DNA from: Elusimicrobiota bacterium
GTDB taxonomy: Bacteria > Elusimicrobiota > Elusimicrobia > UBA1565 > JACRDR01
DNA length: 64,000 nt
Direction of reading: 5' to 3'
NCBI GenBank assembly: GCA_041694815.1
Contig: JBGFSC010000033.1
Location: 8,148 to 72,147 of the forward strand
Shown: one piece after another, positions 1 to 49,864 of the stretch
How positions within the stretch are numbered: position 1 is the stretch's first letter
How the letters are laid out: each line of letters opens with the position of its first letter
Position numbers and translations under genes: made by a program
The notes under the pieces: generated by a model
What the model was told of the DNA's origin: nothing
Seen by the model: only the letters and a program-made list of their open reading frames with translations
Databases searched by the model: none

Positions 1-312
1 AGGCAGTATCCTTGGTAGCTCAGGGGGCGCAGCAGGTAGCTGGAGATGCGTCCCGAGGCGATTTCGCCGACCACCTCCCAGCCGCGCCCCGTGAACGCGA
101 AGGAGCGTAGCAGGGAGACGGCGAGCACGTAGCTGAGCATCTGGGCCCTGGAGTAGCCCAAAAAGCGTTCGTCTTGGCCCAGCAGGGCGGACCAGAAGAA
201 ATACAGCGCGAGGATGGCCGCCAGGCCCCCGACGCGGTCCATCAGTAGGGAGGCGCGCCGCTGCAGCACGTTCTGCAGGCTCAGCGAATAAACGTAGAGG
301 TACTTGCTCATG
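1..312 (-). CDS. ABC-2 type transporter permease, partial (N-terminal part; gene continues past window start)
   Basis: Minus-strand ORF starting MSKYLYVYSLSLQNVLQRRASLLMDR..., hydrophobic. Its start overlaps the stop of the upstream ATPase gene (CATCTGGCATGAGC). Confidence 0.5.
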
Positions 313-1294
313 CCAGATGGGAGCTGTCGGCGAAAAGGCTGCGGACTACTTCCTGCACGGGGGTCTCCTCGATGGTGAGGTCCGCGACGGGAAAGCGGGA
401 GAGCAGAGCGGCGGCGCGCTTGGAAACCTCCGAGCGCGGCACCTCGATGACCGCGTGCAGCCCTCCGTTTTCGGCCACCCGGCCGATCTCCTCGAGCGCG
501 GAGGCGGGGACCGCCTCGTTGAAGTCCGCGCGGATCACCTTGACCGGGGCGTAGCGCTCCACGACCCGGCGCAGCGAGCCGTCGTATAGCAGCCGCCCCG
601 AATCGATGATCAACACGCGGGGGCAGAGCTCGACGATATCGTCCATGTTGTGGCTGGTGAGCAATACGGTGGCCTTGTTGCGCCGGTTGTATTCCAGGAC
701 GAATTGGCGCACGCGCTTCTGCATCACCACGTCGAGCCCCAGGGTCGGCTCGTCTAGCAGCAGCAATCTAGGCCGATGGAGTATGGCCACCGCCAGCTCC
801 GCCTTCATGCGCTGGCCGAGCGAGAGCTTCTTGACCGGGATCGACAGGCAGCCTTGCAGCTCGAGCAGGTCGACGAGCTCCTCGACGCTGCGCCGGTACT
901 CGGCCTCGGGGACCTCGTAGATCTTCTGATTCAGGCGGAAGGTCTCCTGCGCGGGCAATTCCCACCACAATTGGGAGCGATGCCCCATGACCAGCGAGAA
1001 CTGCTTCTGGAATTCCGATTCCCGCTTCCAGGGCACGAAGCCGAGCACGGAGGCCGTGCCGGAGCTGGGGTTGAGCAGGCCCGAGAGCATCTTGAGGGTC
1101 GTCGTCTTCCCCGCGCCGTTGGCGCCTAAAAATCCGACGAGCTCGCCTTCCTCGATCCGGAAGCTGGCGCCGACGACGGCGGGAATGTCGCGCCATTGGC
1201 GGTGCAACAGGGATTTAAAGGCGTTCCAGAGTCCGGGCCCCTTCTCCGGCACTCGAAAAGTCTTGCTGAGGTTGGAAGCCTCGACGATAGCCAC
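308..1294 (-). CDS. ABC transporter ATP-binding protein
   Basis: Walker A GANGAGKTT, ABC signature LSLGQRMK, Walker B LLLLDEPT, H-loop TSHNM. Confidence 0.9.
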   Translation of the reverse strand: MAIVEASNLSKTFRVPEKGPGLWNAFKSLLHRQWRDIPAVVGASFRIEEGELVGFLGANGAGKTTTLKMLSGLLNPSSGTASVLGFVPWKRESEFQKQFSLVMGHRSQLWWELPAQETFRLNQKIYEVPEAEYRRSVEELVDLLELQGCLSIPVKKLSLGQRMKAELAVAILHRPRLLLLDEPTLGLDVVMQKRVRQFVLEYNRRNKATVLLTSHNMDDIVELCPRVLIIDSGRLLYDGSLRRVVERYAPVKVIRADFNEAVPASALEEIGRVAENGGLHAVIEVPRSEVSKRAAALLSRFPVADLTIEETPVQEVVRSLFADSSHLA

Positions 1295-1320
1295 GCCTTA
1301 TTGTACTAAAGCTATGCGTT

Positions 1321-1818
1321 TTAAGGTTTGAATCCAATTTTCGGAGAGGGCCTTTTCTGGCCCGCCATAAGCCGCCGAATGGCACCGAAAATGTTCTGGA
1401 TGTAGATGTCATGGCCCTGCATTTTACGCTCGAGTTTCTGTAATTTTTGGGCGGACTCTTTGTGGGTAGAGATTATTTCGCGCAGTCGAATGAAGGCCCG
1501 CGCTATTTTTACGCTGGCCTCGATGGCGACCGGGGTGTGGAGAACGCTGGAAAGCATGACTGCGCCATACTCCGTAAAGACGTGCGGGAGATAACGGCGT
1601 CCTCCGCGGCCCATGTTTGAGGTTGCAAAATGCAACCTCAAAGAATCGGCCTCCTCGGGAGTCAATTGGAACATGAAGTCTTCGGGAAAGCGCTTTCAAT
1701 TGCGGCTGACTTGTTGATTAAGCCGTTTTGTCGTGACGCCGTAAAGAGCTACGAGATCAACGTCGAGCATGACTTTGTGGCTGCGAATCAAATAAATGCG
1801 GCGCTCGATTTGTTCCAT
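1321..1818 (-). pseudogene. ORF6N-domain protein interrupted by a single in-frame TGA
   Basis: N-terminal 40 codons MEQIERRIYLIRSHKVMLDVDLVALYGVTTKRLNQQVSRN (1818..1699), then TGA at 1698-1696. The same frame continues KRFPEDFMFQLTPEE...GGRRYLPHVFTEYGAVMLSSVL (track ORF 1321..1674). The joined ~165 aa matches the ORF6N family end to end. Confidence 0.65.
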
Positions 1819-1951
1819 GGGAATTATTGATTTCATTCGGGCTCCTGCTACATATATATACGAGTGAACCCCACCTTTTGTTCCCTTCTTCTGCAGAAAT
1901 TCTGCAACAAAGGCCTATTGGGGTATTAGGTCTTTAGTCTCATGCGGGGGT

Positions 1952-2644
1952 ATGAGATCCGGGGTTACTATAAGCCAGGTCATGAAAAGGCGATTTCGTC
2001 GATATGGCCTAGCGGCTCTTTTCCTATGCCAGGGCCTGGGACTTTCCGGATTTCGCCGGCCTGAATCCAGCGTGGGAAAGCCATCGAACCCGGAACCAAA
2101 ATTTCCTTTGCTTGGCGACGTCGTTGACCTGGATGCAGTCACAGAGGAGCTGTTAGGAGAGTTGGATAAGTTGCGAACTTCGACGAGTCCGTCGCCGTTA
2201 GGCGTTATGGATCCTCGTGATCTAATTGACCCGGCGTTAGGCGGGCGCTTGGCAAGGTCGATTCAATTCCGTTTGCCTGGGCCGGCCGAAGCGGAACGTC
2301 TTTTGCGGTATTATGTACGCAAGAAACGTATATCACTGGACATCGATGTTGATTTGCGGGCGGTGGCCTCCGAGGCTCAGGGTTTATCCTCTGCTCAACT
2401 AAAACAGCTAGTCGATGAGGCAGGCTCACAGATGGCGTGTCGGTGGGCGTCTTCAGTGAATGCGGATGATTTCCGTGAAGCATTGGAGGTGTTGCAAATG
2501 GGGCCGGTCCAAGCTGAGGAAGCGAGGAGAAGAAGAAGGGAAGAAGCAATGAATGAGCTGGCAGAGCGTTTCCGCCATCAGGCGACCGCCTTGCCTGGCG
2601 AAGGAATCGAAACCGCTGTAGAGCGATTTAGGTTGCAGTGGTAA
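1952..2644 (+). CDS. exported degenerate AAA+ domain protein (sensor and lid regions kept, no Walker A); probable start 1982
   Basis: MKRRFRRYGLAALFLCQGLGLSG is signal-peptide-like. DLIDPALGGRLARSIQFRLPGPAEAERLL resembles the AAA second region of homology. DVDLRAVASEAQGLSSAQLKQLVDEAG is a lid-like helix. No GxxGxGKT motif. C-terminal tail ...TAVERFRLQW. Confidence 0.5.
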   Translation: MRSGVTISQVMKRRFRRYGLAALFLCQGLGLSGFRRPESSVGKPSNPEPKFPLLGDVVDLDAVTEELLGELDKLRTSTSPSPLGVMDPRDLIDPALGGRLARSIQFRLPGPAEAERLLRYYVRKKRISLDIDVDLRAVASEAQGLSSAQLKQLVDEAGSQMACRWASSVNADDFREALEVLQMGPVQAEEARRRRREEAMNELAERFRHQATALPGEGIETAVERFRLQW

Positions 2645-3369
2645 CTGTTCCTAAAGTTGAGAATGCGTGGAAAGTGGATGCCTGGCACCCAATGAATCGC
2701 CTGGGGCGATCCGTTCGTCTTTTGATCTTTTTGTCGAGCGCGTTGACGCCGGCCTCCGCCATCGGGCCTCGTGGTCCGGGGACGCCGCCGCCAACGTCTT
2801 CGGATCCCGCAAAAACCCGGTTAGCGGATTTGCTAGCCAAGCTGCGAGGAACAGGAAACAAAATTTGTGCAGCAACAATATTACTCACGGGTGTAGAGGA
2901 TAGAGATCGAGACGACATACTTTCTTTGTTGGATCCGATGCCGATAGTTGTAGTTCATCCCGATGGGCTCCGTGCGAACTATGTCGGAGGAGCCTCCCAG
3001 CGTCTTAATGAGGTGTTCAGCCAGGTGACGGCTAAGCACGACGGAGGAGCTTTGTATCTTGATGATTTTGATGAATTTAATAAGGACCCGGTATTAAGGT
3101 CGCAAACGATAATGGGCATAGATACGGCGGTCGCGCTGAGCAAACTAAAGGGATTTCCGGTATTGATATTTGCGCAGACCAATTGGCCGGAGCGCCTAGA
3201 CCCTGCTTTGCGTCGCCGCTTCGCGTACGTGATCAACTGGCGAGCGGACGAACTTCTTCGTGATAAGCAGATTAAGAGGCTGCAAGAACTCCTGGCCGAT
3301 CAGGCTTCGCCGGTCTCTGCTTGGGCGGATGCCGAGACTGCGGAGCGGCGCTTCAAGCTGCCTTGGTAG
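2638..3369 (+). CDS. exported P-loop-less AAA+-like protein; probable start 2692
   Basis: MNRLGRSVRLLIFLSSALTPASA is signal-peptide-like. ILLTGVEDRDRDD sits where GPPGTGKT would be. LYLDDFDEF is Walker-B-like. VLIFAQTNWPERLDPALRRRF matches the sensor-1/arginine-finger region. C-terminal tail ...ETAERRFKLPW. Confidence 0.5.
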   Translation: MVTVPKVENAWKVDAWHPMNRLGRSVRLLIFLSSALTPASAIGPRGPGTPPPTSSDPAKTRLADLLAKLRGTGNKICAATILLTGVEDRDRDDILSLLDPMPIVVVHPDGLRANYVGGASQRLNEVFSQVTAKHDGGALYLDDFDEFNKDPVLRSQTIMGIDTAVALSKLKGFPVLIFAQTNWPERLDPALRRRFAYVINWRADELLRDKQIKRLQELLADQASPVSAWADAETAERRFKLPW

Positions 3370-3407
3370 TTGCTTCCCCGGGCTTATTTTGATAATATAA
3401 CGTTTCC

Positions 3408-3719
3408 ATGTACGCGATCATCGAGACGGGCGGCAAGCAGTTCTGGGTCACCCCCGGCGAGGTCATCCGGGTCGAGAAACTCGAGGCCAAGGAAGGCTCG
3501 GAGCTTAAGCTCAAGGCCCTCTGGGCCGCGGGCGAGCCCGGGCAGGGCGGCGACTCCAAGAAGCTGCCCTCCGCCGAGGTAACGGTGCAGGTCGTCAAGC
3601 AGCTGCGCGCGCCCAAGGTCATCGTCTTCAAGAAGCGAACCAAGAAGGCCTACCAGAAGACCCAGGGCCATCGCCAGGACCTGACCGAGATACGCATCAA
3701 AGAAATTTCCCTGAATTAA
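3408..3719 (+). CDS. rplU: 50S ribosomal protein L21
   Basis: MYAIIETGGKQFWVTPGEVIRVEKL is a typical L21 N-terminus. Sits directly upstream of L27. Confidence 0.9.
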   Translation: MYAIIETGGKQFWVTPGEVIRVEKLEAKEGSELKLKALWAAGEPGQGGDSKKLPSAEVTVQVVKQLRAPKVIVFKKRTKKAYQKTQGHRQDLTEIRIKEISLN

Positions 3720-3731
3720 CCGGATTTATTT

Positions 3732-4010
3732 ATGGCACATACAAAAGCGCAGGGCTCTTCCTCAAACGGACGCGACAGCCATGGGCAGCGCCTGGGCGTC
3801 AAGCGCTACGGCGGCCAATTCGTCCTGGCCGGCTCGGTGCTGGTCCGCCAGCGTGGCACCAAGTTCCTTCCGGGGCTCAACGTGGGCCGCGGCAAGGACG
3901 ACACCCTCTTCGCCAAAGCCTCGGGTGTGGTGACATTCCAGTGGGCCAAGAAGGACAAGAAGCGCCTGAGCGTCATCCCTTCCGGCAACGGCGCCGCGAA
4001 CGGCCAGTAA
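3732..4010 (+). CDS. rpmA: 50S ribosomal protein L27
   Basis: [31 protein letters not shown] is the canonical L27 N-terminus. Confidence 0.9.
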
Positions 4011-7330: not shown

Positions 7331-8680
7331 ATGGCCTTCTCTGACGTCGTCGTCCTGGGCGGCGGCTTCGCCGGCCTCGCCTGCGCGAGCGCGCTGGCCG
7401 AGCGCGGCGCGCGCGTGACCTTGCTCGAGAAGAAGCCCCATCTGGGCGGGCGCGCCTATTCCTTCAGGGAGCCCGGGACAGGCGCCGTCATCGACAACGG
7501 ACAGCATCTGTTCATGGGCTGCTACGGCGAGACGAAGGCCTTCCTGGGCCGCGTCGGCTCGGCTTCCTTGTTGCGTTTCTCCCGGGGGACTCGCGTCGAC
7601 TACCGCGACGGCATGGGCCGGCGCGACGCGCTGTCGTGCCCCGCGGCGCTGCCGGCGCCCTGGCATCTGGCCTTCGGCGTGCTCGGGCTCGCGGGGCTGT
7701 CCTTGCTCGACAAATGGAATCTCCGGAAGCTCAAGACCTTCTTCGATGAGGGCGGCAGGGACCGCTCCGCCGAGCTCGATGCCATGACGGCGCGGCAATG
7801 GTTGAGTTCCGTCGGCCAGTCGCCGCGGGCCCAAGAGAGGCTCTTTGACCCCATCGCCATCGGAGCCTTGAACGAGTCGCCGGAGCGCGCCTCGGCGCTG
7901 GGCCTGGCCCAGGTGCTCGAGCGCCTCTTCTTCCGCGACGCCGAGGATTCCCGGCTCGGCCTCGCGTCCGTTGGCCTAAGCGAGCTCTATACCGAGCAGG
8001 CGCGGCGATTCATCGAGTCCCGCGGCGGCCGCGTCGTGCTCGGCAAGAAGGCCGCCGCCTTGGAAAGCGAGGGCGGCAGGATTTCCGCGGTGAGAACCTT
8101 ATCCGGAGAGCGCATCGCGGCCGATGCGTTCGTCTCGACCCTGCCGCCGTGGGCATTGGACAAGCTCGAGCGGCCCCTTGAGCTTCACGGGGAGTGGTCG
8201 GGACTTAAGCCCTCGCCGATCATCGGCATTAATCTGTGGCTTGATCGGGCCGTGCTGGAGGAGCCCTTGATCGGGCTCCTGGGAACCTCGATCCATTGGA
8301 TTTTCAACAAGAACGCGCTCTGGGGGCTCCGCACGCAAGAGCAATATCTGTCGCTGGTCATCAGCGGAGCCCATGATTTCCTCGGCGCCCCGCCCGCCTC
8401 CTTGCTGGAATTGGCCAAGCGGGATCTGGAGCGCTGCTTGCCCGATTTTAAAAAAGCTAACATAAGCCGATGGTACGTGGTCAAGGAGCCCTTCGCGACG
8501 CTGTCTCCGGTTTGCGGCTCCGACCGGCTGCGGCCGCGCCACGAGTCGCCGCTGCCGAACTTTTTTTACGGCGGGGATTGGACGCAGACCGGGCTTCCGG
8601 CGACCATCGAGAGCGCGGTGCAAAGCGGCCACGCCTGCGCGCGGCTGATAGGGAGGGGAGTCCATGATCAAGTCCGATAA
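7331..8680 (+). CDS. hpnE: FAD-dependent hydroxysqualene dehydroxylase HpnE-like (amine-oxidase family)
   Basis: [40 protein letters not shown] dinucleotide-binding motif. Sits directly downstream of hpnD. Confidence 0.7.
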
Positions 8681-9233
8681 GTGGATACGGAAAATGTCGC
8701 TGCAGCATAAGATGATCGACCCCTTCGTTGAAAAGCTGCAGGCCAACGGCCAGATTTCCTACGGGCTCTCCTCGTATGGCTACGATATCCGCGTCACCGA
8801 CCAATTCAAGATCTTCACCAACGTGCTGGGGGCCGTCGTCGACCCCAAGAATTTCGACGAGAAGTCCTTCGTTGATTTCAGAGGCCCTTTCTGCATGGTC
8901 CCGCCCAACTCCTTCGCACTCGCCCACTCCTTCGAATATTTCCGCATCCCGCGCAACGTGCTAGGGATATGCATTGGCAAGAGCACCTACGCCCGGTGCG
9001 GCATCGTCGTCAACATTACCCCGTTGGAGGCCGAGTGGGAGGGGCACCTGACGATCGAGATATCCAACACGACGCCCCTGCCGGCCAAGATCTATTCGAA
9101 TGAAGGGATCGCGCAACTCATCTTCCTGGAGTCCGACGAGGTCTGCGAGACCTCGTATAAAGACCGCAAGGGCAAGTACCAGGCCCAGCAAGGCATCACC
9201 CTGCCGCGCATCCTGAGCGCTTCGGCGTCGTAA
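8664..9233 (+). CDS. dcd: dCTP deaminase
   Basis: [31 protein letters not shown] and [15 protein letters not shown] motifs. Confidence 0.85.
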
Positions 9234-9482
9234 AAAGCGGTAACTTTCGCCTGCAAACGCGGCTTCGGCCTGTTCCCCAGCGCCGCTACTTGAGGCGTAC
9301 CTTTTAGTAGCCGCGTTCGTCGCTCTTTGATTCGTCTCGAAATCCGTATTTTTGCGTTCGAACCGTGTTTTTGAACGGCTTCTAGAAAAATATCCACCTT
9401 ATTGCAAAAACCATTTATAACAATTGCGTTTTTTGCGCCAACTCCGTCTGAAAAGAGTTGGAGCGAAAAGACTTTATAGAAC

Positions 9483-10427
9483 ATGCGCTTTTTTACCCAA
9501 TGTGGATATTTTTCGAGTCGGGACGGAACTTATTCGTGGCTCGATCGTATATATAGTATGGCGATGATCGAGTTAGACGGCGAGCGATTGCTCGCCGAAT
9601 GCGACACGAAGAAAGATGCCGAACTGTTTGCCAGGCTGGAGCGCTTTCGAGGAGAAGAGTCCGAGTCGCTCGCGCAGACATTGGCATGTTTGGCGACGTT
9701 GGATAGACGCAAGGCGGCTGATGAGCTTGCGGACGGTTCTCTGTTTCTCTATTGCACTCGGAAACTCGGTTATTCCGAGGCAGAAGCCTATATGAGAATC
9801 CGGGTGGCGCGAGCCGCCAACGACTTTCCGCGGATTCTAACGATGATCGGTCGCGGGCAGATCCATGTCAGCGCGGTCGCCCGGATAGCGCCTTATCTGG
9901 ATTCCGAAAATTATAGGAGCCTGCTGGGCAAGGCCAGTCGGCGAAGCCGCGAGGAACTCGATCGGCTGATTGCGGAATTAGAGCCGCAGATAGAGAGGCG
10001 ACCGGTCATTCGCTCTCTATCCGTGGGGAATAATGCTCGCGCTCCGATTGTCACAGCGGAATCGCTCTTCGAACCGCCTTCGCCGCAGCTTCACTCTTCT
10101 TTCTCGCAGTCGGCATCGGGAAGGGAAAATAAAATCGAGATGAAGATCGAGCCCTGGCTGCCGACGGCCGTGCCTGATAACGCCGGCGCGTGTTCCGTTC
10201 GCCCGCCTGCCGGCCGGGTTTTATTTAGCTTCGTCGGCAGCGAGGCCTTTCGGGCTAAATACAAGCGGGCGAAGGAAATATTGCTTCATAAATATCCCGA
10301 TGGAAGTCCAGAGAAGATATTCGATGACGCGTTGGAAGCGCTGTTGGACAAAAAAGATCCTTGGCGCCGATTGGCGAGGAAAGAAAGGCGCCGGGCGATG
10401 GCAGGCTCTGAGGTGGATTCTTCATAG
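9483..10427 (+). CDS. DUF222-like (13E12-repeat) domain protein with no detectable HNH nuclease domain
   Basis: ARLERFRGEESESLAQTLACLATLDRRKAADELADGS...RIRVARAANDFPRILTMIGRGQIHVSAVARIAPYL resembles the N-terminal domain of DUF222/HNH proteins. AT-rich DNA on both sides. Confidence 0.4.
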   Translation: MRFFTQCGYFSSRDGTYSWLDRIYSMAMIELDGERLLAECDTKKDAELFARLERFRGEESESLAQTLACLATLDRRKAADELADGSLFLYCTRKLGYSEAEAYMRIRVARAANDFPRILTMIGRGQIHVSAVARIAPYLDSENYRSLLGKASRRSREELDRLIAELEPQIERRPVIRSLSVGNNARAPIVTAESLFEPPSPQLHSSFSQSASGRENKIEMKIEPWLPTAVPDNAGACSVRPPAGRVLFSFVGSEAFRAKYKRAKEILLHKYPDGSPEKIFDDALEALLDKKDPWRRLARKERRRAMAGSEVDSS

Positions 10428-10577
10428 CTCTGGTGCATGGGCCCGCTTCCAAATACGATAAACGCTTGCGCAGTGACATCATAGGACCTTAGGCCTATTT
10501 CCAGGAGTCCTAAAAAACCACGTATTAAGGCCCTAAAGGCTCAGGCGGCTTAGCCGTTTGGCGCGTACACTTTACCA

Positions 10578-11285
10578 ATGCGTTTGCCGTGGATTCTCTG
10601 CTGTTTGCTCGCCGTCGCACCGTCTCTGGCGGCCGAAACCGTCGAGTCGATCAAGGCCGGCTCCGGCGTTGACTTCGGAGAAGGAGCGACGGCGGTTGGC
10701 CTGACGGGAAATCCCTCGAATTCCTCTTTCGGGTCTCAATTCGCCGCCCTATTTAAGCTCGGCCAAGCCAGGAGGCAGACGCCTGGAGTTAGGCGCAGGG
10801 GGCCGATCATCGTCAAGGAGCCGGCGCCTCCGCCGTTTCCGAAAAATCACGATTATTGCTGGCCAAGCGCCTTGGACCGCGCGGCGGGTTTCGTGATCGG
10901 AGTTGTTTTTCCGACGGTGCTTCTAACCGCCTTGAGTTTTGCCTCGGGCATCGGCTTGGGGACCGGCTTAGAGAGTGCTACCAGCATGGCCGGCTTCCTA
11001 TTGCCCCGACTCGCGGGAGTCCTCTACGGGGTCACTACGGTGATGGCATGGGCTCATATAGTGAATTGGATGCTCCGTCAGACATGGATTCAATGGCCGA
11101 AAGGCCGCGCGAAACCGGTGGATCCCATGGCGATCGTAATGGCGTTCGCCCTAGGATTCTTTTCTCCTCCGCTGGCCGGATTGATCATCGGCTGGAGTAT
11201 GGGCCGGCATTGGGCGGCGTTCCTATCCCAGAGACTGGGCTGCGCGGTTGAGAAACTTCTCTATCGAATATGGTATCGCCTATGA
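10578..11285 (+). CDS. signal-peptide/multi-pass membrane protein, paralog A of a five-member family (divergent)
   Basis: SP MRLPWILCCLLAVAPSLAAE, then ETVESIKAGSGVDFGEGA, PIIVKEPAPPPFPKNHDYCW, then 3-4 predicted TM helices. Same architecture as paralogs B-E. Confidence 0.5.
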   Translation: MRLPWILCCLLAVAPSLAAETVESIKAGSGVDFGEGATAVGLTGNPSNSSFGSQFAALFKLGQARRQTPGVRRRGPIIVKEPAPPPFPKNHDYCWPSALDRAAGFVIGVVFPTVLLTALSFASGIGLGTGLESATSMAGFLLPRLAGVLYGVTTVMAWAHIVNWMLRQTWIQWPKGRAKPVDPMAIVMAFALGFFSPPLAGLIIGWSMGRHWAAFLSQRLGCAVEKLLYRIWYRL

Positions 11286-12415
11286 AACCGATTTTATTGG
11301 CTCTTGCCCTGGCCCTCGCCGCCGACGCGCCGGCCTCGGCCGGCGAAAGCGAGGAGCTCAAGGCGGCTCTCGAGGAGACCCGGGGCCTGCTGGACATGAA
11401 CAAGCCCCGCCGGGAATTCGAGCGCCATAGCGGCGATATGCGTTCGGTGGCCTTTTCCTCCGACGGCTCCATGATCCTCTCTGCCAGCCACGGCAACGTG
11501 TTCCTCTGGGGGGTCGACGACCTGGAGTTTATCACTAAATTTGAGCCGCCGAACGAATACGGTGGCTTCCACGGGGCCCAGCTCAGTCCGAAAGATGAAA
11601 CGCGAATCCTTACCGCTAGCACGAACTGGGTCATCCTGTGGCGGTGGAACCAGGAGGAAGGCGCGCTCGAGCGGGTCAAGAAACTCGACGTTGGGGGAGA
11701 CGGCGCCGAGATCGCGATCTACAGCACCGATGGCTCTCGCATCGTCACGGCTCACGGCAAGAGCGCTATCGTATGGGACGCCGATGGTAACAAGTTGGCC
11801 CTCATCGAGGCGCCGGGCGACATCCATTCGGTTTCGATCAACCCGGAAGGCTCGAGATTGGTCACGGTGCATCGGGACGGGTCGGCCAGCGTGTGGGAAG
11901 TCGGAGTCCTGAAAAAGAAGCTTCTCCTGTTTGATGTGATTGGTGGGAAAAGGCTTCTGGACCTTCCCAAAGGCAATCGGCGGGGAGCCGCGCTTTTTAG
12001 CCCCGATGGTTCCAAGTTCCTGACCCTCGGCGGAGATTTCAGGCTGCGGGATGCGTCGAACTGGCAAGATTTGGGGATTTTCAAGCCAGAACAGGGGGTG
12101 TTTTCGACGGCGGCGTTCAGCCGGGACGGCTCGCGAATTGCGGCCGCTAACGATAAGGAAACGGTGGTATTCAACGCCAGGACGGGTGAGATCGTCAAGG
12201 TGCTGCCGCCCGCCCTTTGCGTGGGATTTAGCCCGGAGGGTACTTATCTGGCGACCGGAGGGATCGATCGCGTGGTTCGAGTTTGGAAGATAGCCTTCTC
12301 GTCGCAGGAGCTCAAGGCCGTGGAGCATCGTCTAAAGAATAAGGCGAACGCCGCCGATCCTGAAAAGGCGAAGGACGAGATCCAGACGGCCGAGGAGCGC
12401 TTTAGGCTTGATTAG
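11270..12415 (+). CDS. exported WD40 beta-propeller protein 1, ends ...TAEERFRLD
   Basis: SP MKPILLALALALAADAPASA. WD40 blades, e.g. SVAFSSDGSMILSASHGNVFLWGVDD, VSINPEGSRLVTVHRDGSASVWEV, VGFSPEGTYLATGGIDRVVRVWKI. Overlaps both flanking paralog genes. Confidence 0.7.
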   Translation: MVSPMKPILLALALALAADAPASAGESEELKAALEETRGLLDMNKPRREFERHSGDMRSVAFSSDGSMILSASHGNVFLWGVDDLEFITKFEPPNEYGGFHGAQLSPKDETRILTASTNWVILWRWNQEEGALERVKKLDVGGDGAEIAIYSTDGSRIVTAHGKSAIVWDADGNKLALIEAPGDIHSVSINPEGSRLVTVHRDGSASVWEVGVLKKKLLLFDVIGGKRLLDLPKGNRRGAALFSPDGSKFLTLGGDFRLRDASNWQDLGIFKPEQGVFSTAAFSRDGSRIAAANDKETVVFNARTGEIVKVLPPALCVGFSPEGTYLATGGIDRVVRVWKIAFSSQELKAVEHRLKNKANAADPEKAKDEIQTAEERFRLD

Positions 12416-13010
12416 GGTCCTAGCGGCAGCTTTGGTATTGTCTTATTTTTGCGTGCCAGCCGGCGCCGGCGAGCTGGAGGAGGCCAAGCAGGAGTCCGGG
12501 ATCGAGTTCGGCGAGGCGGGGGCCGCCGCTTCGGTCCTAAGTCCGATCCCCGCGCGCGCCCCGGGCCCGATCGCGGGCCTGATGCATTTGGTTCAGAAGG
12601 CCAGGCGCGGAGGCCCGCCGGCGCCCATCGTCGTTTCCGAACCCATCAATCATAAGAATTGTTTGTGCAAAAACAGCGCGGACGAAGAATTTCTAGGTTA
12701 TATAGTCGCTCTCTTGCCCCTAGCCGCCGGGATTCTCGTAATGATCGTTTTTGGAGACCCATTTTTTGGCGGCGTGGCACGCGCCGCGATTCCCCAAATG
12801 ATTCTGGCGCGACTTGCCGCATCCGCGCTTGTCACCGCCTGGTTTTGTCGCTTGCGGAGTCCTATAAAATTCGATTGGTTAACGGGCACCACTCTCGGGC
12901 TCATCGCTGTGACGACGGCGGTTTTTCCGCCTATTGGCGGAGCTTTCCTGAGCTACTTATTGGTTGGGGATCTAATTAGGTGGTTCCATCATTTCCTGCG
13001 CCGAGAATGA
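12408..13010 (+). CDS. signal-peptide/multi-pass membrane protein, paralog B
   Basis: SP, GELEEAKQESGIEFGE, PIVVSEPINHKNC, 3-4 TM helices, C-terminal WFHHFLRRE. Confidence 0.6.
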   Translation: MIRVLAAALVLSYFCVPAGAGELEEAKQESGIEFGEAGAAASVLSPIPARAPGPIAGLMHLVQKARRGGPPAPIVVSEPINHKNCLCKNSADEEFLGYIVALLPLAAGILVMIVFGDPFFGGVARAAIPQMILARLAASALVTAWFCRLRSPIKFDWLTGTTLGLIAVTTAVFPPIGGAFLSYLLVGDLIRWFHHFLRRE

Positions 13011-13597
13011 AGACCTCTATTTTCTTGACCTTAATCGTTCTGGTGGCTTCGGGTCAGCGAGAGAGGCTTTTCGCCGGCCAAGCCGAGGCGATAAGGCATG
13101 AGTCGGGAATTTTTTTCGGGGAAGGCATGTCCGTGCCCTCCTCGGTCGCGGCGGAGGACAGGCGGATCGGCCCCTCCGCCCTGCTGTTCGCCTTCCAAAA
13201 AAAGAAAGCCGGGCCGAGAGGGCCCATCGTAGTGAAGGAACCGATCAATCACAAGGTTTGTTCTCCAAATCGGCGCGAGCAATTGGCCGGAGCGGTGGCT
13301 GGAATTATCGTCCCGACCCTTGCGGTCTTGGGAATGGAACTCGCTTGGGCCTTTAGTGGTGTTTCCTCACCCATGACTTTCCTGGCGCCGCGGGCCATCG
13401 GCATGGCGCTGGCCGGAGTTTTGGCCTTGGCCTGGGGCCGGTCTCGTAAAACCAGTCTTTCCGAGAATGCGATGTTTTCGACCATGGCGGCCGCCACGGG
13501 CTTTATATCCCCGTCCGCCGGCATATTCGTGTTAGGGATGGTCTTTACGAGCCAGGTCTTGGCCTCCTGGTTCCACCGCCGTCTTCATCTCTTATGA
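13007..13597 (+). CDS. signal-peptide/multi-pass membrane protein, paralog C
   Basis: SP MKTSIFLTLIVLVASG, AEAIRHESGIFFGE, PIVVKEPINHKVC, TM helices, C-terminal WFHRRLHLL. Confidence 0.6.
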   Translation: MKTSIFLTLIVLVASGQRERLFAGQAEAIRHESGIFFGEGMSVPSSVAAEDRRIGPSALLFAFQKKKAGPRGPIVVKEPINHKVCSPNRREQLAGAVAGIIVPTLAVLGMELAWAFSGVSSPMTFLAPRAIGMALAGVLALAWGRSRKTSLSENAMFSTMAAATGFISPSAGIFVLGMVFTSQVLASWFHRRLHLL

Positions 13598-14151
13598 AGA
13601 ACTCAGCTTTCAGATACGTATTCCTTGGCCTCGCCTTCGCGGCGGGCGTACTGCACGCCGGGTCCCTCGAGGAGGCCAAGGATGGGTCGGGAAGCGTGTT
13701 CGGGGAGTCCGCTGGCTCTTCGGCCTCCGCCCCGCCCGCGCGGCTAGGGATTACCGATAAGGTCCGACCGCTCGTAGCCAGACTTTACCGGCCCCGTAGG
13801 GAGCCGATCATCGTCAAGGAACCGCCCAATCATCGGCTCTGCTTTCCAGATAATAAGGACGCTAAAATCGCGACCTGGATCGCCGTCATCCTGCCCGCGA
13901 CGGCCATTACGGTGCTGGCCGCCACCTCGGCCTTGGGGCTGTCGCCCATTTCCTTCGCAGTGCCGGGCGCCATCGGCGCGGGACTGACCATCATCGGCCT
14001 AATTAGGGCTGACATGTTTAGGCCCAGCTGGAAGGCGATCGCCGTCGCCGCCGCCTTGGGTTTCTTCTTGCCGGCTATTCCGGTGCTTTTCTGGGGCGCC
14101 GGCTTATGGGATGGCGCCGTGTCCTGGATTCATCGGCTGAGGCATCGATGA
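13594..14151 (+). CDS. signal-peptide/multi-pass membrane protein, paralog D
   Basis: SP, GSLEEAKDGSGSVFGE, PIIVKEPPNHRLC, TM helices, C-terminal WIHRLRHR. Confidence 0.6.
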   Translation: MKNSAFRYVFLGLAFAAGVLHAGSLEEAKDGSGSVFGESAGSSASAPPARLGITDKVRPLVARLYRPRREPIIVKEPPNHRLCFPDNKDAKIATWIAVILPATAITVLAATSALGLSPISFAVPGAIGAGLTIIGLIRADMFRPSWKAIAVAAALGFFLPAIPVLFWGAGLWDGAVSWIHRLRHR

Positions 14152-15262
14152 ATATCCTCTTTATGGCCGCAGCCGTGCTCGCGGCCTCGTTGCCCGGCCG
14201 CGCCTTCGCCCAGGCTCGAGGCATACTCGCGGAGCGCAAGGCCTTTCTCGAGGAGATCGAAGCGCAGCGGCCCACCGAGCCGACGCTGACCCACACCCTG
14301 CAGGCTTCGGGACCCATCGCGTTTAACGGAGACGGTTCCCTGGCGCTTATCGGCTCGACCTTGTTCGACGCCAGGAGCTGGAAGGTGGCCGGATATTTGG
14401 ACGGCCATAAGCAGGCGGTGACCGCCGCGGCCGTTTCCCAGGACGGCAGGATCGCGGCGACGGCGAGCTGGCACAGCCGGGACAAGACGGCGATCCTATG
14501 GGAGCTTCCCTCCGGCCGCCAGGCTCGCGCGATCAAGGGGCCTTCGGCCATACTCTCGCTCGCCTTGAGCCCCGACGGTTCGCGGCTCGTCACGGGACAT
14601 CATAATAAAAGCGCGATCATCTGGGATGTCGCCACCGGCAAGAGGGTGCTCGAACTCATAGGGAATGAGAATACGGTCTACGCCGTGGCGTACAGCCCCA
14701 GCGGAGAAAAGATCGCCACGGCGGGGGCGGATGAAAAAATCCATATCTGGGACGCCAAGACTGGAAAACGGACGCATTGGGCCGAGGGTAGCCTTGGCGC
14801 GATCATCTCCTTGGCGTTTACTCCAAACGGCGATAAGATCATCAGCGGTTCCGATAAAGGGATGGTGGAAGCCACGCCCGTCAACGGCGGTCGAGGATGG
14901 AAACCTCTCTTTAAGAACGTCGGCAAACCGTATTCAATCGCCGTCAGCCCTAATGGGAAAAAAATCGTGGCGGCCGGCACGATACCCAGGCTGTTTGATG
15001 AGGTGAGCGAACGGTTCTCCTTTTTCGAGCTGACGGCCTCCCGGTCGAAGGGGACTTCTTTTCCGTCGCGTTTTCTCCCGGGGGTTATGAAATATTGATC
15101 TCCGGGCTCGATGGGATCACCAGGGTATGGTCCATCGCTATGTCGCCCGAAAGGATACGGGAGAAGCTCAAGGAGTTCGACGAGCGCCTCAGGCAATCCG
15201 CGGCCATCCAAGCCGCCAACGGAGAAGCCATCGACGCCGAGGAGAGGTTCAAATTATGGTAG
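14106..15262 (+). CDS. exported WD40 beta-propeller protein 2 with an apparent frameshift (possible pseudogene or homopolymer error); ends ...DAEERFKLW
   Basis: Track ORF 14106..15098 has SP plus WD40 blades (VTAAAVSQDGRIAATAS, LSLALSPDGSRLVTGHHNKSAIIWDV, VYAVAYSPSGEKIATAGADEKIHIWDA). The last blade FFSVAFSPGGYEILISGLDGITRVWSI...AEERFKLW* reads only in another frame, open from about 15004 to 15262. The shift lies near a T5 run around 15025-15040. Confidence 0.55.
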
Positions 15263-15843
15263 CGCGCCTATGCCTCGCCTTCATTCTATATTTGCCCGTC
15301 ATGTCGCGGGCCGGGGAGACGGAAAAGCTCAAGCAGGAGTCCGGTATTCTATTTGGAGAGAGTCGGCAAAACACCGGTGCCGTGTCGTTCTTTAGGCTGC
15401 CGGGACGCAAGGCCGGACCCGCGGCGGCGAACGCCGCGGCGCCCAAGGCCATGCCGCCCAATATCATCCCTCCGCCGCGATTTAACAGGTATGACGTTCC
15501 TACCTGGGAAATTTTAGCAAGCTTCTTGGTGACGGTCGCCCTGCCTTTGGCGGCCGCCGGGGCGGCTCAGCTGGGCATTCAGGCGAGCATACAGGCGAGC
15601 GCAGGGCTTCCTTTGATCGGCTGGCGCGTGTTGGGCGGCTTGGCATGCGGCATTTGGGCGCTCGCCTGCGGTTGGGCCAATCCGAAGCAAAGGATGAATA
15701 AATGGGTTTTCGGCGCCTTGATGGCGGGGCTCGGGAGTTTTTTGCCGGGCGGCGCCGCTTTTTTGCTATCTGCCGTCTCCATGAACCAATTGCTCGGCCC
15801 GGTCGCCTCATGGATACACAGCGCCCTTAAGCGAGAGCCGTGA
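15256..15843 (+). CDS. signal-peptide/multi-pass membrane protein, paralog E
   Basis: SP MVARLCLAFILYLPVMSRAG, ETEKLKQESGILFGE, Pro-rich linker, TM helices, C-terminal WIHSALKREP. Its ATG overlaps the TGG-TAG end of WD40 protein 2. Confidence 0.6.
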   Translation: MVARLCLAFILYLPVMSRAGETEKLKQESGILFGESRQNTGAVSFFRLPGRKAGPAAANAAAPKAMPPNIIPPPRFNRYDVPTWEILASFLVTVALPLAAAGAAQLGIQASIQASAGLPLIGWRVLGGLACGIWALACGWANPKQRMNKWVFGALMAGLGSFLPGGAAFLLSAVSMNQLLGPVASWIHSALKREP

Positions 15844-16743: not shown

Positions 16744-17052
16744 TTGACGGAAACGATCAAGATACGAGGCCTCCTCCGGATCCCGGCCTGGATATTCGGC
16801 GTCTGGGGATTGGCCGTCTCGGCGAAGGGCGCCTGGGACCTGCTGGGCTTCGGCGAGCCCGAGGCCAACCGCTACGCCCCGCGCCCCTGGGAATTCGTGA
16901 GCCAGGCCGAATGGGCCCGCTACGCCTTCTTCGAGCTCTGCTATGGGCTGGCCTGCCTTGCCCTGGCCTGCCTTATGATGCGATTTGCGCGCTTTTTGCC
17001 CGAGACCCTGGAGCGCCCGAAGGCCGAGCCGGCCTTCGACATATTCCGTTAG
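16744..17052 (+). CDS. small hypothetical membrane protein
   Basis: Two hydrophobic segments (AWIFGVWGLAVSA, FFELCYGLACLALACLMM). No recognisable family. Confidence 0.3.
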   Translation: MTETIKIRGLLRIPAWIFGVWGLAVSAKGAWDLLGFGEPEANRYAPRPWEFVSQAEWARYAFFELCYGLACLALACLMMRFARFLPETLERPKAEPAFDIFR

Positions 17053-49144: not shown

Positions 49145-49238
49145 TACCGATAAACCGGCAAACCCTCCGCGAGGAGGGGGCGCAAAGCGTAGGGCCTGGA
49201 GGTCCAGGTCGCCTGGCTACCGAAGACAACAGTAGGTT
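49145..49238 (+). promoter_or_regulatory. candidate c-di-GMP-I (GEMM) riboswitch aptamer
   Basis: ggCAAACC-cuccGCGAggagg-GGCGCAAAGC-...-uggCUACCGaag matches the GEMM signature: GNRA-capped hairpin, CGCAAAGC junction, second hairpin, UACCG. Enclosing stem acuguugu/acaacagu. Confidence 0.5.
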
Positions 49239-49270: not shown

Positions 49271-49335
49271 CCCGGCCTTGACTGGCTATCTTCGGGATAG
49301 AGGGGTGAGATAGTCAGCGAGGCCGGGCCTTTTAT
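49271..49335 (+). terminator. intrinsic terminator / riboswitch expression platform
   Basis: Imperfect long hairpin cccggccttgactggctatc...gatagtcagcgaggccggg followed by cctttt. Confidence 0.45.
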
Positions 49336-49864
49336 GGGCAACGGGAGGCGCTTGAAAGGGAATATCGAGGCGGCTTGGGCGTACTGCGGATGGACCGCGT
49401 GGCTCGCGGTCTGGGGGTATTGCCTCCCCGCCCCCGCGTACGCCGAGCCGGCTCCGGTGGGGTTAGAGGCCCAAGGAGTCGATCCTTGGGCCGCTTTGCA
49501 TAGTCGCGACCTGGACGTGCGTGACGCCTTCAATCGCCCGGTATCCAGGCGCCTCATCGAGGGCCAAATCAAGGCGGCATCCTCCGGGGCCCGGGATTCG
49601 GTCTCATTTTTCTCCAGGCTTCCCAAGGCGCGCTCGGTGCTGGTCTCCTTGGAACGGATGCTGATAGCCAGCTGCGGCCTGGCGGCGCCCTCGCCATGGT
49701 CCGGTTTACGTATCGCCGTCACTTCCTGGCTGTGCCGCCCGTCGCCCAAGATCTCGGTGTTCTGGGCCTTCCTGAGTGTCGCCTCGGCTGCCGCTGCGTC
49801 GATTTCGCTGGTCGTCATGCAACCCCGCAAAATCGCCTCCCCCGCGCCGGTCCTGCGCTGTTAA
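49334..49864 (+). CDS. hypothetical ORF immediately downstream of the riboswitch terminator
   Basis: Only sizeable + strand ORF between the riboswitch and the HEAT gene. High GC3 fits coding. Hydrophobic N-terminal segment. No family recognised. Confidence 0.25.
   Translation: MGNGRRLKGNIEAAWAYCGWTAWLAVWGYCLPAPAYAEPAPVGLEAQGVDPWAALHSRDLDVRDAFNRPVSRRLIEGQIKAASSGARDSVSFFSRLPKARSVLVSLERMLIASCGLAAPSPWSGLRIAVTSWLCRPSPKISVFWAFLSVASAAAASISLVVMQPRKIASPAPVLRC

Follow-up and report, generated by a model that had tools for sequence, protein, structure and literature searches.

A tandem array of tagged membrane paralogs and putatively exported WD40 propellers in an Elusimicrobiota bacterium: a candidate peptide-docking module of the cell envelope

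Introduction

What might five small, putatively exported membrane proteins do together with the two equally signal-peptide-like-headed WD40 propellers whose genes are interleaved with theirs? This question is raised by a 64,000-nucleotide stretch of an Elusimicrobiota bacterium (assembly GCA_041694815.1, contig JBGFSC010000033.1, positions 8,148 to 72,147 of the forward strand), which was analysed at its full length and is called the window hereafter. Positions 10578-15843 of the window hold seven consecutive open reading frames (ORFs), all on the + strand, in the order paralog A, WD40-1, paralogs B, C and D, WD40-2 and paralog E. The original prediction, made from the sequence alone, had described these seven genes, and the ORF calls agree with it. 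The membrane family and the 13-residue N-terminal tag carried by its members match nothing described in the libraries searched. Our favoured explanation, which is tentative and possible rather than probable, is that docking peptides, displayed on tethers by the anchored paralogs, are bound by the co-translated propellers, in a lineage-restricted accessory module of the envelope.

The features of the array are as follows (signal peptides are predicted; leave-one-out profiles are described below):

10578-11285, + strand: paralog A, 235 residues; signal peptide, tag ESIKAGSGVDFGE, motif 2 with an insertion, C-terminal half hydrophobic, without WxH tail; leave-one-out profile E 1.3e-15.
11270-12415, + strand: WD40-1, 381 residues, likely ATG start at 11282; signal peptide, N-terminal helix, seven-bladed propeller and two C-terminal helices (the latter three as modelled); Pfam WD40 E 2.3e-24.
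12408-13010, + strand: paralog B, 200 residues, TTG start; tag EEAKQESGIEFGE, then PIVVSEPINHKNC, three hydrophobic segments, tail RWFHHFLRRE.
13007-13597, + strand: paralog C, 196 residues; tag EAIRHESGIFFGE, then PIVVKEPINHKVC, tail SWFHRRLHLL.
13594-14151, + strand: paralog D, 185 residues; tag EEAKDGSGSVFGE, then PIIVKEPPNHRLC, tail SWIHRLRHR.
14148-15262 after frame repair, + strand: WD40-2, 371 residues when repaired; as assembled, a 316-residue ORF ending at 15098.
15256-15843, + strand: paralog E, 195 residues; tag EKLKQESGILFGE, motif 2 degenerate and without Cys, tail SWIHSALKREP; leave-one-out profile E 5.5e-11.
10644-10682 (A), 12477-12515 (B), 13085-13123 (C), 13669-13707 (D) and 15322-15360 (E), + strand: tag-coding segments, direct-repeat family D1.
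10803-10822 (A), 12624-12643 (B), 13223-13242 (C) and 13804-13823 (D), absent in E, + strand: segments coding for motif 2, repeat family D2.

The public gene models recovered in protein searches have lengths of 235, 200, 196, 185 and 195 residues for A to E, respectively, and 316 residues for WD40-2.

Results and Discussion

A new family of membrane paralogs

Paralogs A-E align end to end, with pairwise identities of only 26-36 %. That they are paralogs, as had been claimed, is borne out by profiles from which the tested sequence was left out (E-values computed at Z=1e6): each protein is recognised over its full length, with E-values ranging from 5.5e-11 for E to 1.5e-29 for C. Two motifs are shared. 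The first, i.e. the tag, comprises 13 residues, ExxKx[EGD]SG[IV]xFGE, and lies just past the predicted signal-peptide cleavage site, while the second reads PI[IV]V[KS]EP. After back-translation, the 64-kb window contains five matches to the tag and four to motif 2, compared to 0.00 expected for either from shuffled sequence (100 shuffles in the case of the tag). The single architecture originally proposed for all five proteins applies to B, C and D; in the alignment, E is without motif 2 (PIVVKEP/NH..C) and its Cys. Paralog A is the loose match that it was said to be, having an insertion in motif 2 and no C-terminal WxH motif.

By hydropathy, B-E have three hydrophobic segments and A has two that exceed the threshold, and the topology is uncertain, i.e. 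the proteins may span the membrane with three helices (N-out, C-in) or with four. An AlphaFold2 model of paralog C has helices at residues 89-117, 122-146, 151-167 and 169-195, while residues 13-54 have a predicted local distance difference test (pLDDT) score below 50, which is consistent with this segment being disordered. N-terminal hydrophobic segments reach or exceed the threshold of 1.5 in five of the seven array proteins (C and D being below it), and the cleavage sites, of the A|G or A|E type, were assigned by eye.

The statement that the membrane paralogs belong to no characterised family also stands: searches of Pfam, NCBIfam, PADLOC and PHROGs and a PDB profile search were all without significant match for A-E, no E-value being better than 0.03 and all scores falling far short of the cutoffs. 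The paralogs thus match no curated family, such as a transporter, anti-sigma factor, immunity or defence family, and an origin from a defence system or phage was rejected since PADLOC and PHROG were empty for the paralogs. Self matches were all that the family profile returned in a word-indexed search for homologs. When 1.84 billion cluster representatives were searched exhaustively with hmmsearch, without an index, A-E themselves and two more proteins, P0006 and P0007, were recovered. P0006 (203 residues, E 1.9e-23) is the sole other full-length homolog; it is nearest to paralog D (E 5.6e-22) and retains the tag, GPIVVKEPSNHRHC and SWVHGLRHR. The two motifs are thus conserved outside the array and are not low-complexity artefacts, the outcome that could have undone the original prediction. 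In the resulting family of A-E and P0006, characterised by the tag, PIVVKEP and three transmembrane segments, every member is recognised nearly whole by a profile built without it. The match to P0007 (144 residues, E 2.2e-8) is confined to its N-terminal 93 residues. Neither P0006 nor any of the outside tag carriers described below has a Pfam or NCBIfam match, the body of one oxidase excepted. Orphan families of this kind are frequent in uncultured phyla.

Two putatively exported WD40 propellers, one of them frameshifted as assembled

Both WD40 proteins begin with a hydrophobic signal-like segment and are, as to their fold, ordinary members of a known group: PF00400 scores 85.2 bits in WD40-1 (E 2.3e-24) and 101.4 bits in WD40-2 (E 1.7e-29) at a cutoff of 27, with multiple repeats present. 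The AlphaFold2 model of WD40-1 (49-sequence alignment; pLDDT 84.8, predicted template-modelling score 0.80) consists of a signal-peptide helix, a helix at residues 28-41, 28 strands making up seven blades and two C-terminal helices, i.e. WD40-1 is modelled as a seven-bladed closed propeller. In Foldseek, canonical seven-bladed WD40 structures were the best matches (5yzv and 7big; template-modelling score (TM-score) 0.88, target-normalised), and G-beta was also among the top ones. The likeness to the Thermomonospora curvata WD40 protein (PDB 5yzv), which shares the PF00400 repeats, extends to a root-mean-square deviation of 2.2 Å at 23 % identity; in contrast to such prokaryotic WD40 proteins, both proteins of the array have a predicted signal peptide and, besides a helix at the N-terminus, a pair of helices at the C-terminus. 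In sequence, the closest relatives of WD40-2 show 25-39 % identity over 26-83 % of the query, and its homolog search gave generic WD40 matches only, without orthologs in informative neighbourhoods. TolB (TIGR02800) was rejected as an identity for either protein, since WD40-2 reaches 20.6 bits versus a cutoff of 343.15, WD40-1 has no match and the WD40-1 model is seven-bladed with only a helix in front. Of note, the helix after the signal peptide is common to both WD40 proteins (EELKAALEE and AERKAFLEE, encoded at 11350-11378 and 14228-14256, with 83 % identical DNA over 29 nucleotides) and loosely recalls ELEEAK, with which the tag begins in its first half.

As assembled, WD40-2 is frameshifted. 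When the C-terminal 65 residues of WD40-1 were used in a tblastn search, they matched positions 15059-15256 in another frame (37.7 % identity over 69 residues, E 2.7e-6), and this frame encodes the last blade, FSVAFSPGGYEILISGLDGITRVWSI, followed by a helical tail ending in AEERFKLW and a stop codon. Stop codons in frame 2 cease at 15001, homology in the original frame is gone after about 15011, and one base missing from GAACG (15009-15013) would explain the shift. Owing to such a 1-nucleotide deletion around 15009-15011, the assembled ORF lacks the last blade, which is seen by alignment after frame repair, as well as the C-terminal helices. The shift may have arisen in the assembly or be a true mutation, either being possible. 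The deposited WD40-2 gene model (316 residues, P0008) is truncated by it and is worth checking.

Repair of the frame also bears on the gene junctions. The claim that all genes overlap does not hold for the sequence as assembled, in which 157 nucleotides separate the WD40-2 stop at 15098 from the E start at 15256, and this gap is an artefact of the frameshift. With the frame repaired, the WD40-2 stop codon (TAG, 15260-15262) overlaps the ATG of E by 7 nucleotides, mirroring the 8-nucleotide overlap of WD40-1 and B, and all six junctions overlap as proposed, the other four, i.e. A/WD40-1 (given the WD40-1 start at 11282), B/C, C/D and D/WD40-2, being ATGA overlaps. The longer version of E that would start at 15127 falls within the shifted WD40-2 frame and is spurious. 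The overlapping junctions fit co-expression. Neither promoter nor terminator enrichment was found, and Rfam gave no match in the cluster. Since the junction from WD40 to the next gene is duplicated, as are the WD40 C-termini (AEERFRLD in WD40-1, AEERFKLW in WD40-2, each followed by the stop codon), the array looks like a product of tandem duplication, in agreement with the original prediction.

The tag recurs on unrelated exported proteins

Evidence that the tag is not confined to the paralogs came from P0007, which is composed of a signal peptide, GELEEMKAESGVKFGE, an Ala/Lys/Pro-rich linker and a Gly-zipper-like C-terminal anchor. We further scanned the GTDB representative genomes (596 Gb) and a metagenome collection with the tag back-translated into degenerate DNA. 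These scans gave 52 genome, 84 metagenome and two viral matches, of which all but four arose by chance in unrelated proteins or non-coding frames; discarded in this way were HesB-like proteins of Chlamydiota, Lpd of Pirellulaceae and out-of-frame matches. In one of the remaining four, from an 'uncultured Elusimicrobia' metagenome-assembled genome (MAG; L019), the tag heads a 530-residue secreted oxidase (FAD_binding_4/ALO). The other three (L026, 167 residues; L075, 190 residues; L113, 181 residues) are mini-proteins which, like P0007, contain only a signal peptide, the tag, a tether and a Gly/Ala-rich membrane anchor.

The tag is thus carried by 11 proteins, i.e. A-E, P0006, P0007, L019, L026, L075 and L113. 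A 55-column profile of the 11 N-termini gave 47-69 bits on the ten carriers covered by the scan (P0006 being without a locus), and the next best score in all fetched DNA was 24 bits. In every carrier the tag starts at residue 20-34, 1-8 residues past a predicted site of the A|G, A|E or A|Q type. Behind it, the ten carriers with a membrane anchor have a tether 47-97 residues long, with a net charge of +2 to +6 and 37-52 % Ala/Gly/Ser/Pro. As far as sequence comparison goes, the tag is evidently portable among unrelated exported proteins, and the N-terminal motif is not specific to the paralog family.

No WD40 gene was found on the five contigs retrieved for outside carriers, of which 1.6-8 kb each were available. 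Therefore, the receptor of the tag need not be an adjacent WD40 protein, and the proposed pairing with WD40 proteins, while present within the array, is not a general rule. With regard to the surroundings of the outside carriers, P0007 is divergently adjacent to a pair of genes for M16 peptidases (L001, stretch 288-3874).

A sorting or processing signal as the main rival

These observations bring in the main rival to the docking explanation, i.e. that the tag directs sorting or processing by machinery whose genes lie elsewhere in these genomes, such as a dedicated peptidase, a modifying enzyme or an outer-membrane or surface targeting factor. The WD40 proteins would then be cargo, partners of only the family-specific part of the paralogs, or unrelated to the tag. 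A signal of this kind would account for one tag on such different bodies, namely the family with three transmembrane segments, a secreted oxidase of the FAD-linked type and four mini-proteins that differ from one another and have Gly-zipper anchors, for outside carriers on separate contigs without a WD40 neighbour, and for a tag always found beside the predicted cleavage site with Ser, two Gly, Phe and Glu invariant in all 11 carriers. However, neither the window nor the carrier loci contain a candidate sorting enzyme, the tag-tether-anchor mini-proteins have no obvious cargo, and about 11 carriers in 596 Gb of genomes plus metagenomes, with a maximum of one per outside contig, leave a regulon-like set of cargo undemonstrated. 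We consider this alternative somewhat unlikely.

The PEP-CTERM/exosortase, GlyGly-CTERM/rhombosortase and LPXTG/sortase systems are comparable in that a short conserved motif is found on unrelated secreted proteins in few lineages, with paralog expansion in one genome. Their tags, however, are C-terminal and tripartite (motif, transmembrane helix and basic tail) and come with a dedicated sortase, whereas the tag of the array is N-terminal and directly follows a predicted Sec signal peptide; we know of no processing enzyme for it. Membership of the C-terminal sorting tags was ruled out, since there was no match to an NCBIfam sorting domain, the tag is N-terminal and no sortase-like gene is present among the 38 window ORFs scanned.

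Comparison with Tol-Pal, Ton and G-protein assemblies

Docking peptides at the mature N-terminus of periplasmic proteins are known from TolB, with its TolA box (ADPLVISSGNDRA in P. aeruginosa), and from the TonB box (PMC7066135). The array resembles Tol-Pal and Ton in having a short conserved peptide at or near the mature N-terminus, a flexible segment, a periplasmic location and the involvement of a beta-propeller, although there is no meaningful sequence similarity and the peptide resides here on inner-membrane-anchored proteins, in TolB on the propeller itself. By positional analogy, i.e. a short peptide that is carried by a disordered tether at the N-terminus of the mature protein, the tag might be a TonB-box- or TolA-box-like peptide that binds by beta-strand augmentation to a TonB/TolA-type C-terminal domain encoded elsewhere, providing a Tol/Ton/Glt-like link to the proton-motive force. 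One chance match of the metagenome scan could be counted in favour of this. On a contig of GC content 0.31 (Ga0193958_1017635, L130), positions 540-1574 encode a CglE-like outer-membrane barrel (NF033755) whose N-terminal extension carries six [SG]GMxFG[ED][DE] repeats, the core of which resembles the tag core SG[IV]xFGE; the barrel gene is immediately preceded by a GltG-like ORF whose product has an AgmX/PglI (TonB-C-like) domain at its end. Yet the likeness in sequence is restricted to a few residues, and the repeat is from an unrelated low-GC organism and was found with a pattern made for such strings. Moreover, no Tol, Ton or Exb gene is present among the 38 window ORFs scanned, no TolA or TonB partner was identified, and the propellers are seven-bladed WD40 proteins without the N-terminal domain of TolB. 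A link of this type is very unlikely.

G-beta/G-gamma provides an analogy at the level of the fold only, i.e. a seven-bladed WD40 protein with an N-terminal helix and a small membrane-anchored partner. That pair is eukaryotic and cytosolic, in contrast to the small partners encoded here, which are unrelated multi-pass proteins with signal peptides.

A compositionally foreign island in a variable slot

The impression that the cluster is AT-richer than its surroundings proved right, with a GC content of 0.54-0.62 compared to around 0.65. The GC content at third codon positions (GC3) is 0.60-0.75 in eight genes, hereafter the island, and 0.83-0.91 in the flanking rplU, rpmA, obg, squalene synthase gene, hpnE, dcd, rplM, rpsI and aminotransferase gene. 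The eighth gene lies upstream of the array:

9483-10427, + strand: ORF of 314 residues, the first low-GC3 gene of the island (GC3 0.60), with a sub-threshold resemblance to DUF222.

This ORF had been named as a DUF222 gene, an assignment that did not survive: PF02720 scores 14.8 bits versus a gathering threshold of 24.4 (E 0.018, 93 of 306 profile positions), and there is no NCBIfam, PHROG or PDB match.

The dCTP deaminase of the window falls into the same 90 %-identity cluster as four NCBI proteins named 'Elusimicrobia/Elusimicrobiota bacterium'. A MAG contig of GCA_016207485.1 (L142) has the same gene order, i.e. rplU-rpmA-obg-SQS-SQS-hpnE-dcd followed, after a gap, by rplM-rpsI-small ORF-aminotransferase, and harbours a 184-residue ORF and a gene for an M16 peptidase of 1126 residues (7644-11024) between dcd and rplM in place of the island. 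Housekeeping proteins are 58-89 % identical to those of syntenic relatives, in which tblastn found no match for A, WD40-1, C or the DUF222-like ORF. Synteny with different content between dcd and rplM, together with composition, therefore marks the island as compositionally foreign DNA in a variable slot of a conserved neighbourhood. Its edges show no tRNA, integrase or flanking direct repeats. An M16 peptidase thus occurs both in this slot of the relative and beside P0007, which may be a coincidence or a link.

The same data could be read as a horizontally acquired, possibly decaying island whose cargo has no integrated role in the envelope, the paralogs being e.g. small immunity-like or exclusion-type membrane proteins that diversify by duplication and the WD40-2 frameshift a true pseudogenisation. 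Besides the low GC3, the variable dcd-rplM slot filled by other genes in the syntenic relative and the frameshift itself, the very narrow distribution of the family would fit, and small multi-pass proteins encoded in tandem are a typical sight among immunity genes. On the other hand, neither a toxin nor an integrase, tRNA or flanking repeat is present, and the paralogs match nothing in PADLOC or PHROG. The motifs are strictly conserved at a paralog identity of 26-36 %, which argues for purifying selection, and the frameshifted tail of WD40-2 keeps coding-like GC3 and homology, so that the shift is either recent or an assembly error. This reading is decidedly unlikely.

Elsewhere in the window, a 102-residue membrane ORF without Pfam family follows rpsI (16744-17052) and is 64 % identical to an ORF at the same position in L142. 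A second patch of atypical composition lies beside rplU (1321-3369, GC3 0.55-0.62); it contains an ORF6N/anti-repressor-like ORF on the minus strand (1321-1674) as well as an AAA ATPase-like one (2638-3369) and may be a remnant of a mobile element. A c-di-GMP-I riboswitch (49147-49224, + strand; Rfam RF01051, 56.9 bits) is located upstream of a 176-residue ORF without Pfam family (49334-49864).

A tethered-peptide module of the envelope

According to the docking explanation that we favour, the paralogs would be exported via Sec, freed of their signal peptide and anchored in the cytoplasmic membrane by their hydrophobic C-terminal half, with three or four helices. Each would project a basic, disordered tether of 47-65 residues into the periplasm, with the 13-residue tag at its free N-terminal end and the second, strand-like conserved motif, PI[IV]VKEPxNH..C, at its membrane-proximal end. 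The two exported seven-bladed WD40 proteins, probably co-translated with the flanking paralogs via the overlapping stop and start codons, would serve as periplasmic receptors or scaffolds that bind the tethered peptides, i.e. either the tag or the family-specific motif 2. The outcome would be a membrane-tethered propeller platform assembled from diversified subunits.

This explanation is supported by the packing of the genes with overlaps, by the duplicated WD40-to-paralog junction and by the canonical seven-bladed fold of WD40-1 with its G-beta-like N-terminal helix; short linear peptides are common ligands of the seven-bladed WD40 fold. Further support comes from the place of the tag close behind the predicted cleavage site in all 11 carriers, from the composition of the tethers and the low pLDDT of this segment in paralog C, and from the TolA-box and TonB-box precedents. 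The tag-tether-anchor mini-proteins, too, make sense if the tag docks something to the membrane. Several points weigh against it. Binding of the peptides by the propellers is itself an inference, and the 5:2 stoichiometry of paralogs to WD40 proteins is unexplained. The tag occurs on five other contigs without a WD40 gene in the sequence available, and WD40-2 is frameshifted as assembled. The family is essentially that of one genome plus one homolog, which makes the support from conservation thin. As for structure, the positive-inside rule gives no clear topology for the paralogs, and the model of paralog C, built on a six-sequence alignment, is of low confidence (pLDDT 58.6) and too poor for a fold search.

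It is tempting to go one step further and to regard the tag as an undescribed N-terminal docking or sorting signal of the envelope in Elusimicrobiota-like bacteria, for which the island would encode the most expanded family of clients together with receptor WD40 proteins, i.e. a periplasmic tethering of peptides to propellers. In this wider form the proposal is unlikely.

Implications

The rarity of the system limits its general impact either way, considering that a single outside full-length homolog was found among 1.84 billion representatives and that there are around a dozen tag carriers. If the tag is not such a signal, the cluster is another lineage-specific orphan island of local interest only. 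If it is, a docking or sorting signal placed after the signal peptide would complement, at the N-terminus, the sorting tags known from C-termini. It would also open a way into the organisation of the envelope in Elusimicrobiota, a phylum whose cell biology has, to our knowledge, hardly been studied by experiment. In that case, the tag-tether-anchor mini-proteins would represent minimal membrane tethers, the partner of which could be recovered biochemically.

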